Shown piece by piece: positions 27,679 through 30,216 of a stretch of DNA of 64,000 bases. This DNA comes from Escherichia coli (GTDB taxonomy: Bacteria > Pseudomonadota > Gammaproteobacteria > Enterobacterales > Enterobacteriaceae), in NCBI RefSeq assembly GCF_024700885.2, contig NZ_CP117016.1; one strand, written 5' to 3'. Numbering within the stretch: the first letter of the stretch is position 1; the number at the start of each line of letters is the position of its first letter. The position numbers and the translations under genes are program-made. The notes under the pieces are model-generated. The model did no database searches and was not told where the DNA came from. It was given only the letters and a program-made list of their open reading frames with translations.

Positions 27679-27924
27679 ATGCCTTTCCCGATACAGCGCT
27701 TTCAGACAGACCGGGGAAGAGAATTTTTTGCCGTTAAAGTGCAGGAAAGATTAAAAGAATACGGCATCAAGTTTCGTCCAAATAAGCCAGCGTCGCCTCA
27801 TCTTAACGGAAAGGTTGAACGTTCCCAAAAGACAGACAAAGCTGAATTTTACGCTACCGTAGATCTTTCTGCTGATGACCTGAAGGAACTGCTGCGTATT
27901 ACCGTGAAGGAGATCGGTGAGTAA
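27679..27924 (+). pseudogene. IS481-family transposase fragment (rve integrase core)
   Basis: FQTDRGREF...PHLNGKVERSQKTDKAEFY matches the TDNGSEF...NGKVER integrase-core pattern; lacks its N-terminal half and is followed by an IS3-family insertion. Confidence 0.55.
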
Positions 27925-27968
27925 CGGCGTTTTTCAAGGTAGTTGTCGCCTTTTGTAATAAAATTACG

Positions 27969-28790
27969 TTATGCAGCCTCTTTTTCTGGATTCAGGTAGA
28001 CTTCTGATATGTAGTCCCAGTTACGTAGATGCTTTCCCCAACGTTCAGGATGCTGTTCGCGTGCCAGCTGGTATACTGCTTTTCTGGCCGCCAGTATTTT
28101 CATATCATTACCTTGATGACGCTCGGCTGGCGTGACGTATTTGATCCCGCTGTGCTTATGTTCAAAGTTGTACCAGTTTACAAAACGGTTTACCCATATT
28201 CTGGCATCATTAATAGTGCGAAAACCGTTCTCAGGCCACCAGGGACAATATTTGAGAGTCCGGAACAAAGATTCTGAGTAAGGATTATCATTGCTGACTC
28301 TTGGCCGGGAATAAGAACTTAGCACACCAAGCGCATACATTTTCGCCAACAACGTGTAACTGCGCATGGGAGCACCATTATCAGAATGGAGTACCAGATT
28401 GCTGGATGAACATTTTTCATTCCATATTGCCCGCTGGAGTAGTTCTGCTGCATGTTTTCCAGATTCGCTGGCAAATACCTCTGCAGCAATAATCTTGCGA
28501 CTGTAAATATCGACGATCATATAGAGGTAAAAATGCTGACCTCTGACCCCGGACGGCAAATAGCTGATATCCCAACTCCAGACTTGATTCGGTGCAACGG
28601 CCCTGAGTACATCAGGCCGTTTATACTGACATTCACGGGATCGTTTCTTCAACTGGTTGGCTGATTTCAGTACACGATAAAAGCTTGATTCAGAAGCAAT
28701 ATAAATACCCCTGTCTGCCAGAGTTGGTACGATCACATTTGGAGGTAAGGATGCAAACTCTGGAGAGTTGCACAACTCCAGTATCCGCAA
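27969..28790 (-). CDS. IS3-family transposase OrfB (integrase core)
   Basis: DDE/rve motifs: VWSWDISYLP, HSDNGAPMRSY, YSESLFRTLKY. Probably expressed as an OrfAB fusion by frameshifting upstream of the annotated start. Confidence 0.75.
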   Translation of the reverse strand: MRILELCNSPEFASLPPNVIVPTLADRGIYIASESSFYRVLKSANQLKKRSRECQYKRPDVLRAVAPNQVWSWDISYLPSGVRGQHFYLYMIVDIYSRKIIAAEVFASESGKHAAELLQRAIWNEKCSSSNLVLHSDNGAPMRSYTLLAKMYALGVLSSYSRPRVSNDNPYSESLFRTLKYCPWWPENGFRTINDARIWVNRFVNWYNFEHKHSGIKYVTPAERHQGNDMKILAARKAVYQLAREQHPERWGKHLRNWDYISEVYLNPEKEAA

Positions 28791-28993
28791 TCTTTCCGCT
28801 TCTGACAGCTTATTTCGGGGAGATCTGTTTACAGTATCGGATCTTCGGTCCGTGGTGATGACTTTGCCATTAGTCCAGCGCTGAAGTGTCCGAACAGAAA
28901 TACCGATACACCTACAAGCCTGACTTTTCCGGGCGCCGTTGATAACGGCCTCGTGGATAAGAGAAATAATTTTACGCCGCTCCAGGAGAGGGG

Positions 28994-29536
28994 TCAGTCT
29001 TCCTCGCTGTTGTCCCAGAGGGCATTGAACTTTTCCCTTAATATAAGCAGGGCAGCTGCTTCCGCCAGAGCTTTATCTTTGCGCTTAAGCTCTTTCTCCA
29101 GTTCTCGTAACTTATTTTTTGCGTCACGCAATGCCCTGTCTGTTCGGATATTTTCCGTCAATTTCTTTTCATGCGCTTGAATTGAGATAGCCCGCCATTC
29201 TTTAACCTGTTCAACAAACAATCCCGTGCGTCGGCAATAATCAGCAAGTTCCATTTCTGACAGCGTAGCCGTCTCAAGAACAACTGAGAATCGACGCTCC
29301 GGTGTCCAGTCTTCAACATCAACGGAGGTAATCTTTTCATTTTCAGGTAAAAGTCCTTGCTCCACTAACTCACATCTCCATTTTGATACAACTGAGGCAC
29401 TGATCTTCAGCTTACGGGCTATCTGACGATGTGACCAGCAGTATGGTGGTAAAAGCCATATCAGTCCTTTCTCTTTGAGCTCACTTGGTATTGGTTGTCC
29501 TGGCATTGTTATCTCCTTAAAAAATTGAGGCGACAA
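28994..29536 (-). CDS. IS3-family transposase OrfA
   Basis: 180 aa; HTH region followed by a coiled-coil/leucine-zipper segment (LRDAKNKLRELEKELKRKDKALAEAAALLIL). Confidence 0.75.
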   Translation of the reverse strand: MSPQFFKEITMPGQPIPSELKEKGLIWLLPPYCWSHRQIARKLKISASVVSKWRCELVEQGLLPENEKITSVDVEDWTPERRFSVVLETATLSEMELADYCRRTGLFVEQVKEWRAISIQAHEKKLTENIRTDRALRDAKNKLRELEKELKRKDKALAEAAALLILREKFNALWDNSEED

Positions 29537-29561
29537 CTATGCTGACACAGGGGGTTATTGA

Positions 29562-29797
29562 GTGATCTCCTTTCATGAAAATACGCAACTGCTGGCAGAA
29601 TGGCAGATTACTATAACTGGGAACGTCCTCATAGCGCTCACAACGGTAAAACTCCGATGGAACGCTACTTTGAACTTGCTGAGAAAACACCATACTCTGA
29701 TGCCGTTCATGCAAACTATCAGCCCAATGAAGAGCATATACAGGAACAGAATTACAAGCTTGAACTTGAACTGAGAAAATTAAAACGATGTCTATGA
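29562..29797 (+). pseudogene. IS481-family transposase C-terminal fragment
   Basis: DYYNWERPHSAHNGKTPMERYFELAEK matches the YNxxRPHxxLxGxTP C-terminal motif of rve transposases; an upstream frame change and stop are present. Confidence 0.55.
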
Positions 29798-29805
29798 ATC
29801 ACACA

Positions 29806-30036
29806 GCTTATTTATATCCTTATTTTTTTACTTACCTGTGGACTTACTTGGCTTTAGTCCCGAGGTATTGCCAGGAGTATCTTTATTATCGCGTCGGCGT
29901 TGATCCGGTTTTCCTGTCGACTTAGCAATTGGTTTTGGACCTAGTTTAAGACCCATGATAGTTATCCTTCGAGATGTAAGAGGAATGCCCTCAACATTGG
30001 TATATTCTATACTGAGAAATTTTTCAATGGGAATGT
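29806..30036. repeat. Direct repeat copy B (about 231 bp); partner at 825-1056
   Basis: See copy A; same orientation, flanking sequences diverge on both sides. Confidence 0.8.
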
Positions 30037-30216
30037 TCAACGGCCGAATGATTAACTCGATATTGTGAGCAATGTCTTTTTTTGGCACAGAGCGAACCGT
30101 TAGATTGCGCGTATTTTTATGGAAGGAGATCATCCAATAACGGTTACTCACCGATCTCCTTTATGGTAATACGCACCTGTTTTATTAACATATAGAAAAA
30201 ATTACTCCGGCATGTT

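Follow-up and report, generated by a model that had tools for sequence, protein, structure and literature searches.

The region analyzed lies within a 64,000-nucleotide (nt) stretch of Escherichia coli DNA (RefSeq assembly GCF_024700885.2, contig NZ_CP117016.1), referred to here as the window. It contains an IS481-type transposase pseudogene interrupted by an insertion that carries an IS3-family transposase and, to its right, a short palindrome located downstream of the ibrAB genes (Table 1). Both the insertion and the palindrome are probably hollowed-out remnants of the IS21-family insertion sequence (IS) ISEc12, the first being a composite in which two ISEc12 tips enclose an IS3-family element (designated ISx here) and the second a fossil of 70 base pairs (bp) consisting of two tips.

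The two elements share a 17-nt sequence, GGAGATCGGTGAGTAAC, which was found as exact copies at 27909-27925 (forward strand) and 30143-30159 (reverse strand), confirming the inverted match described in the original prediction. These were the only two copies, and no third site was identified in the window when up to two mismatches were allowed. Chance was ruled out as the origin of the pair, since 0.01 matches were expected and two or more copies were obtained in none of 100 dinucleotide-preserving shuffles. The length of 17 nt understates the similarity, which extends over 33-39 nt; over 39 nt, the arm at 27887-27925 shows 90% complementarity to the arm at 30143-30181. In the remaining half of the palindrome (30109-30141), complementarity to the distal end of the IS3-type insertion (29554-29586) is 88%, so that the small element near 30140 represents both ends of the insertion placed back to back.

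Based on sequence identity, both 17-mer copies were assigned to the istB-side end of ISEc12, in which the outermost terminal repeat unit includes them as its inner half (positions 17-33); by analogy with IS5376, this would be the unit bound by the catalytic IstA subunits. The earlier interpretation was therefore partly supported. It had proposed a solo IS terminus as one possibility, and the 17-mer is indeed a non-coding terminus and not an internal, coding part of an IS; it belongs, however, to the istB-side terminal repeat of ISEc12, so that the suggested comparison with reference termini of the IS481 and IS3 families would have failed. The first copy lies close to the junction between the IS481-type fragment and the insertion, as had been stated, but 16 nt inside the insertion (27893-29587) rather than exactly at the junction. 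The second copy was correctly placed within a palindrome, the 70-bp element at 30106-30175, which holds tips of both types and is thus not solo. In short, the 17-mer was correctly spotted and assigned to the wrong IS families.

Table 1. Coordinates of the interrupted pseudogene, the inserted composite and the 70-bp element
Feature	Position	Strand	Basis
IS481-type transposase pseudogene, upstream half (insertion target)	27679..27892	+	NCBIfam transpos_IS481, E=1.6e-15, partial
Target duplication ACTGC, left copy	27888-27892	+	Single ACTGC in uninterrupted FORC_069
ISEc12 istB-side tip, outermost unit, 33 nt, TGCGTATTACCGTGAAGGAGATCGGTGAGTAAC	27893..27925	+	100% to ISEc12 1-33
ISx, IS3-family element, 1,628 bp	27926..29553	-	NCBIfam, Pfam, PGAP; identical unit in other contexts
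ISx imperfect inverted repeats sharing TAGTTGTCGCC	27926-27951 and 29528-29553		
ISx orfB, -1 frame	open ~29033 to 27969	-	Open reading frame
ISx orfA, 170 aa	28994-29506	-	Open reading frame
ISEc12 istA-side tip, outermost unit, 34 nt, inverted, GTTATTGAGTGATCTCCTTTCATGAAAATACGCA	29554..29587	+	100% to ISEc12 2548-2581
ACTGC, right copy (29588-29592), then IS481-type pseudogene, downstream half	29588..29797	+	Family profile; FORC_069 empty site
70-bp remnant, left arm, istA-side type, 36 nt, TGCGCGTATTTTTATGGAAGGAGATCATCCAATAAC	30106..30141	+	88% complementary to 29554-29586
Single G between arms	30142	.	Read from sequence
70-bp remnant, right arm, istB-side type, with second 17-mer (30143-30159)	30143..30175	-	31/33 (93.9%) to ISEc12 1-33

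ISEc12 is 2,581 bp long and is named by the NCBI Prokaryotic Genome Annotation Pipeline (PGAP) via istA and istB; the copy examined was flanked by a GGGGG duplication. Its istA-side end reads TGCGTATTTTCATGAAAGGAGATCACTCAATAAC/TTCCATCGAGATCGGGTAATAAC/ATTTGAACAGATCGCTGAATAAC..., in which three direct GATC-N4-AATAAC units are spaced at 23 bp; the first junction is also read as TGCGTATTTTCATGAAAGGAGATCACTCAATAAC/TTCC.... The istB-side end reads TGCGTATTACCGTGAAGGAGATCGGTGAGTAAC/ATCGATGGAGATCGG..., or in a second reading TGCGTATTACCGTGAAGGAGATCGGTGAGTAAC/ATCGATGG.... The repeat units occupy positions 21-34, 44-57 and 67-80.

The tips in the window match those of ISEc12 at 33/33 and 34/34 positions, the first of them carrying the first 17-mer copy, and identity ends exactly at the boundary of ISx. 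The whole inserted unit measures 1,695 bp and is flanked by ACTGC, a target duplication of the size looked for (4-8 bp, and 5 bp in the case of ISEc12). Full-length copies of the unit in other E. coli align from 27889 to 29591, while an independent copy in PA45B starts with TGCGTATT, ends with AATACGCA and has CCTGG on both sides. In FORC_069, the neighboring DNA of which is identical, the IS481-type pseudogene is uninterrupted and contains a single ACTGC, which represents the empty site. The window insertion was common to only two of 5,426 complete genomes.

ISEc12 and the window elements share the TG start and the CA end, with tips that are 100% (33 and 34 nt) or 88-94% identical, and the composite resembles ISEc12 insertions in its 5-bp flanking duplication. 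They differ in that ISEc12 carries istA, istB and two to three 23-bp units per end, whereas in the window elements a single unit remains on either side, fewer than the two or more sought, and neither istA, istB nor any other part of the ISEc12 interior was found across the 64-kb window. On this comparison the window elements are best classified as ISEc12 remnants with truncated ends and not as IS21 elements, and the window holds no intact ISEc12.

Published ISEc12 insertions give 5-bp duplications, one of which is ACTGC, in tssM of the sequence type 131 (ST131) strain EC958 (PMC10711316). The pentamer duplicated in the window is the same, and the duplications GCTGT, CCTGG and CTGTGG are also CTG-rich, which suggests a weak target preference.

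The inner element, ISx, matched the IS3-family model NF033516 of NCBIfam with 169.8 bits against a cut-off of 160, and Pfam domains rve (E=2.8e-17), rve_3 and HTH were identified. PGAP annotates it as a joined coding sequence (CDS), "IS3 family transposase, programmed frameshift"; a putative frameshift region, GAA AAG, was read from the sequence near 29030. Based on its junctions, ISx starts with CCCC(C)TGTG and ends with ...AAACGCC(G), the end sequences being CCCC(C)TGTGTCAGCATAGTTGTCGCC and GGCGACAACTACCTTGAAAAACGCC(G). The IS3-family features examined were all found (DDE/rve profile, two reading frames, a duplication within 3-5 bp) with the exception of canonical tips.

ISx was found in several other contexts. 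Within full-length ISEc12 it lies right after position 34, with ATAAC/GTTAT duplicated on both sides (loci L154 and L155), or after position 57 (L154, L157 and L158). In a second IS21-family element, ISx is likewise enclosed by two tips and sits 32-33 or 56 nt from the tip, the whole being flanked by CTGTGG; the end of this second element reads TGCATAATCGCATCTGAATCGATCACCAATTCG and continues with five more 23-bp units. At the CCTGG site described below, ISx occurs in both orientations between unchanged, non-chimeric tips, and a 71%-diverged relative shares the junction ...AATAAC/GGCGTTTTTCAAG. Taken together, these contexts indicate that ISx is a separate IS. In all of the approximately 14 distinct contexts examined, a modest and non-random sample drawn from two IS21 elements, ISx abuts the boundary of an IS21-type repeat unit, and it was found nowhere else. 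Judged from these junctions, ISx appears to be an autonomous IS whose insertion sites are the boundaries between 23-bp units in IS21-type ends, at a distance of 32-34 or 56-57 nt from the tip.

A broader proposal is that ISx recognizes the 23-bp unit boundaries in at least two IS21 elements, replaces the IS21 interior, and leaves first composites, perhaps moved by IstAB, and then fossils. This is offered tentatively, at slightly less than even chance. It would imply that the target is defined by phase, by DNA shape or by the IstA-bound end rather than by sequence; the local sequences of the two IS21 targets differ (ATAAC versus ATTCG), which suggests that phase or DNA shape is recognized. In the transpososome of IS5376, another member of the IS21 family, the DNA is sharply curved at the junction of repeats R1 and R2 (PMC10122671).

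No description of an IS3-family element targeting IS21 ends was found in the literature, ISfinder lying outside that search, and such targeting is apparently undescribed. Nor was a name for ISx recovered: the exact-sequence cluster of OrfA contained only entries called "hypothetical protein" or "transposase", and PGAP offers only "IS3 family transposase".

In GCA_045609445.1 the same flank and ISEc12 tip are present at two places 215 kb apart (L154 and L155), with ISx oppositely oriented, and in GCA_974490215.1 (L157 and L158) ISEc12 ends are fused via a shared ATCGATGGAGATC motif. Both arrangements suggest inversions or duplications mediated by ISx or ISEc12. In several genomes an IS110-family (ISEc21-like) element abuts the outer tip of the second IS21-type arm (L146, 2236-2330), and IS21-type tips may therefore serve as targets for more than one kind of IS.

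The clearest view of how such remnants arise was provided by the CCTGG site, which adjoins a gene for an Alw26I-family methyltransferase. Four alleles were identified there, which have identical flanks and agree in the CCTGG duplication and in the orientation of their tips: full ISEc12 (2,581 bp, 100% to the reference) in SF-088, tip-ISx-tip in orientation A (1,696 bp) in PA45B, tip-ISx-tip in orientation B with ISx inverted (1,695 bp) in L149, and a mini-element of 62 bp in JJ1886. The junction between flank and ISEc12 on the istB side was matched by 69 genomes. As full ISEc12 occupies the same duplication, the full element must have made it, and it was from this element that the composite and the mini-element were derived in situ. 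As the cause of the ISx inversion, recombination between the inverted tips was rejected; the tips are non-chimeric, and the segment that is flipped is exactly the ISx unit.

Small two-tip elements of 58-80 bp, with several different internal junctions, were found at no fewer than nine sites in E. coli genomes and gut metagenome contigs. Some have 5-bp duplications of their own, e.g. TTAAG. Nucleotides from the ends of ISx were recognized at the centers of several (CAATAAC-CCC-GTAAC, AATAAC-CCCC-GATCTCC and, in O22:H8, TTTGG-CCGG-GTTAC), and the junctions built from modern tips fall at microhomologies of 1-2 nt. One 80-bp form keeps ISEc12 subterminal sequence, and this form was therefore derived directly from the full element. 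Two kinds recur: type C (62 bp, identical) and types E/F (60 bp, near-identical) occupy two sites each. At the second sites of types C and E there are no duplications, the junctions are mosaic and no empty alleles were found.

Two 60-bp mini-elements (L035, 4317-4376; L007, 1501-1559) have the same unusual junction, with a single base difference between them. Both are found downstream of genes for serine protease autotransporters of Enterobacteriaceae (SPATE; S6 peptidase), and one of them begins 1 nt past the stop codon, the homology in other genomes ending at its tip. On metagenome contig SKEU01001545.1 (L030, 1868-1947), an 80-bp two-tip element of ISEc12 type directly follows ...GTGTTCCCCGCG and is placed inside or at the end of a type I-E clustered regularly interspaced short palindromic repeats (CRISPR) repeat, with a complete repeat and spacer just upstream. 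A genus-wide repeat family was rejected: in a scan of genome contigs for the two-armed pattern, the only such contigs returned were two of E. coli type binned into metagenome-assembled genomes, together with unrelated hairpins in Acinetobacter and an archaeon.

The following route is proposed for the remnants as the simplest one. ISx would insert at the inner edge of the outermost unit, its preferred target, at both ends of one ISEc12, each insertion giving a 5-bp duplication. Recombination between the two ISx copies, or an adjacent deletion mediated by ISx, would then remove istA, istB and the inner units and leave tip-ISx-tip. Finally, ISx would be lost from the composite across the hairpin formed by the inverted tips, leaving a two-tip element; the folded hairpin would bring the deletion endpoints together, and this step is most likely for the 70-bp element. 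For the window site we infer this order of events, as well as the deletion mechanisms, and the remnants would at present be immobile. Such immobility would agree with the in vitro behavior of IS5376, IstA of which needs two complete repeat units per end for integration (PMC10122671); by that analogy, ends with a single unit should not be IstA substrates.

Several observations weigh against this account. The ends of ISx (CCCC...CGCC) are not the TG...CA that is canonical for the IS3 family, TG being present 4-5 nt inside one end and CA being absent from the other, and the ISx duplication is known from two insertions in one genome assembly (L154 and L155). ISx and its target preference may already be recorded in ISfinder. 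The 70-bp element may have consisted of arms only from the first, or may have lost ISx. Among the 5,426 genomes, no full ISEc12 was found at the IS481 site of the window or at the L156 site, so that in-situ formation at these sites is deduced by analogy; a search for the full-ISEc12 allele of L153 gave split matches. Lastly, at least eight composite sites stand against about three contexts of ISx in full ISEc12. In the site searches, the flanks of ISEc12 copies in the top BLAST matches were apparently similar; this was attributed to chance extension ranking thousands of copies.

The excess of composites over ISx-bearing full elements would also fit the idea that the tip-ISx-tip unit is itself mobile and transposed whole into the IS481 pseudogene, having been cut at its tips by ISEc12 IstA and IstB acting in trans. 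ISx would then be the cargo of a miniature element derived from ISEc12, and the small two-tip elements would be true MITEs (miniature inverted-repeat transposable elements). The missing full-length alleles are in keeping with this idea, as are the duplications, which lie directly outside the tips at several independent sites (5 bp in ACTGC, GCTGT and CCTGG, 6-7 bp at others) and are CTG-rich like the published ISEc12 insertion. The occurrence of identical 62-bp and near-identical 60-bp elements at two sites each also speaks for mobility; however, the second sites of these shared types are the mosaic junctions without duplications. The composite at the CCTGG site is allelic to full ISEc12 within the same duplication, only one unit is kept per end where IS5376 IstA needs two, and the adjoining ISx sequence is unlike a second repeat unit. 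Transposition of the composite as a unit is considered unlikely, although it retains appreciable weight, and in-situ formation is placed somewhat ahead of it for the window composite.

The 70-bp element is more diverged than the composite tips. Its left arm has four mismatches and a 2-nt insertion at the tip, and its center, CAATAAC-G-GTTACTC, is that of a PA45B-type composite from which exactly ISx has been subtracted; the single G may be a footprint of ISx. The element was common to approximately 557-563 genomes and is flanked by TTAGAT and CCTGT without a target duplication. According to the annotation of identical genomes, it lies downstream of genes for a phosphoadenosine phosphosulfate reductase (IbrA-type), an IbrB-like protein, a PerC-family regulator and two hypothetical proteins.

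Other alleles of the locus differ at or near the arms. In Shiga toxin-producing E. coli (STEC) O103, O145 and O157, homology of the module on the ibrAB side starts exactly at 30176, with no arm; in AH25 the left-hand module ends near 30089, also without an arm. In O22:H8 (RM10809-3) the istB-type arm alone is present, connected with a second-IS21-type tip and a fragment of IS66. Based on these alleles, the 70-bp element is the mark of an old boundary, one of IS-associated rearrangement, between the "helicase / 107-aa ORF" module (ORF, open reading frame) and the ibrAB module, and the lack of a duplication is explained by this position. As judged from its arms, the element is probably an older, diverged ISEc12-like copy reduced to two tips. 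The join in RM10809-3 (L017, 2965-3036) is a hybrid mini-element in which a second-IS21 tip (TGCAAAATGGCATCTGAATCGATCAC...) is connected by CCGG to an ISEc12 istB-type tip, and it abuts the IS66 transposase fragment.

The palindrome could alternatively be kept for a local function, either as an RNA hairpin (a terminator or mRNA stabilizer) or by providing the 107-aa ORF (WP_001387054.1, hypothetical) with its start codon and ribosome-binding site. A two-segment hairpin is predicted on both strands, with z-scores of -3.3 and -4.0, and the element is conserved in about 560 genomes. The ORF, at 29828-30151 on the reverse strand, has its GTG start inside the istB-type arm, 4 nt after the AAGGAG of the arm, so that the ISEc12 tip would supply its predicted ribosome-binding site and start codon. 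A hairpin, however, already follows from an origin as two inverted IS tips; no Rfam family was matched in 27500-31000 at E values up to 1, and no terminator-like or promoter-like site was identified at the palindrome. The ORF has no Pfam domain, and the homologous region of AH25, which has no arm, carries no annotated CDS. In strain 98200, IS1 is inserted in the right arm (L015 ~3067, window ~30161), at ...GATCTCCTT/GGTGATGCTGCC, with no obvious consequence. A local function is accordingly regarded as improbable.

The original prediction had also offered a recombination scar that would connect the two junctions. In its favor, the second copy is situated at a mosaic rearrangement boundary and lacks a duplication, but the postulated link between the junctions did not hold: the composite, a recent insertion, is present in two genomes and the 70-bp element in about 560, which points to different ages, and for the composite both a clean duplication and an intact empty site were identified. 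With both tips present in the second copy, and with tips that are those of ISEc12, this explanation has very little probability.

Equally remote is a model that treats the whole 1,695-bp unit as one IS3-family IS bounded by terminal inverted repeats of its own, about 60 nt long, the 60-80-bp elements being MITEs derived from it by internal deletion. It accounts for the alignment of the two ends of the unit over about 60 nt, for the duplication outside the tips, and for the 62-bp form of JJ1886 at the site of the 1,696-bp unit of PA45B within the same CCTGG duplication. In a sensitive BLAST search with the unit, most of about 3,000 E. coli records had as their best match only the last 34 nt, at 100% identity, and in all four cases inspected this match was the outer terminus of ISEc12; the model was dropped once the 34-nt matches had proved to be ISEc12 ends. 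It is opposed by the identity of the outer 33/34 nt to ISEc12, stopping at the ISx boundary, by the presence of ISx with its own ATAAC duplication inside full ISEc12, by its presence between the quite different tips of another IS21 element, and by its occurrence in both orientations between fixed tips.

The surroundings of the insertion were also inspected. Just downstream of it (29600-29625), the IS481-type pseudogene contains a frameshift, LLAEWQ and YYNWERPH being encoded in different frames, as would be expected if a single base were missing near 29607. Even without the insertion, then, the gene was already a pseudogene. The region at approximately 21900-27700, upstream of the IS481 fragment, was read by homology to L002 (1-6000), an identical genome, which carries a type VI secretion system (T6SS) cluster (tssB, tssC, aaiC/hcp2 and tssF), an IS630-family pseudogene and a beta-ketoacyl synthase fragment. 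The whole forms a dense mosaic of IS fragments bordering the T6SS island.

The annotation of the window is corrected accordingly: the "IS3 insertion" would be an ISEc12 remnant with its interior replaced, and the "palindrome" near ibrAB a two-tip ISEc12 fossil at a module boundary. The tips were missed by automated annotation because they are too short and contain no genes. The 17-mer itself is ordinary IS debris, while the interaction of two ISs around it, of moderate interest, is apparently undescribed. In E. coli, ISEc12 is common and has been noted clinically, having, for example, inactivated tssM in ST131 clade C (PMC10711316). If the proposed behavior of ISx is correct, ISx would be a natural antagonist that preys on IS21 elements, a source of hairpin-forming mini-repeats, and a system in which to study how a DDE transposase locates a target defined by structure. 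In the allelic series of four states at the CCTGG site, IS decay can be dated directly in a lineage that is well sampled.

Among known systems, the mini-elements resemble the MITEs of bacterial ISs (e.g. MITEEc1/ERIC) in being small and non-coding, with inverted repeats derived from a parent IS (58-80 bp, with ISEc12-type tips), in having several copies per genome and, in some cases, 5-bp duplications. They differ in that their origin in situ from a resident full IS is readable at one site, their mobility as a unit is only putative, the family is absent from species-representative genomes, and the window copy has no duplication. No ISEc12-derived mini-elements were described in the literature searched, which covered terminal sequences, MITEEc, and MITEs of the IS3 and IS21 families.

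A possible likeness in mechanism is also seen to nearly precise Tn10 excision (Ross, Swan & Kleckner 1979; Foster et al. 1981; both as cited in bioRxiv 10.1101/2023.06.07.543989) and to microhomology deletions of ISApl1 (same preprint). As outlined there, most of an element flanked by inverted repeats is lost and a short palindromic remnant of its ends stays inside the original duplication. The junctions of the two-tip elements at microhomologies of 1-2 nt are like those of the deletions that remove ISApl1. Unlike those cases, the inverted repeats here have only about 24 nt of near-identity and some remnants keep ISx nucleotides.

In its choice of target, ISx recalls the DEDD, seekRNA-guided ISs that insert in the terminal repeats of another element, since the position of insertion is fixed and the end that is hit is probably inactivated. 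ISx, however, is a DDE element of the IS3 family that generates a 5-bp duplication, is found in both orientations, and occupies equivalent positions in two IS21 elements of differing local sequence. Within the IS3 family, IS1397 and ISKpn1 insert specifically in the palindromic units of bacterial interspersed mosaic elements (BIMEs). ISx is like them in that it belongs to the IS3 family and is strongly specific for a genomic element that is short, repeated and prone to form hairpins; its target differs in being the terminal repeat array of another IS rather than a host repetitive extragenic palindromic (REP) sequence or BIME, and the interior of the IS that it enters is replaced.

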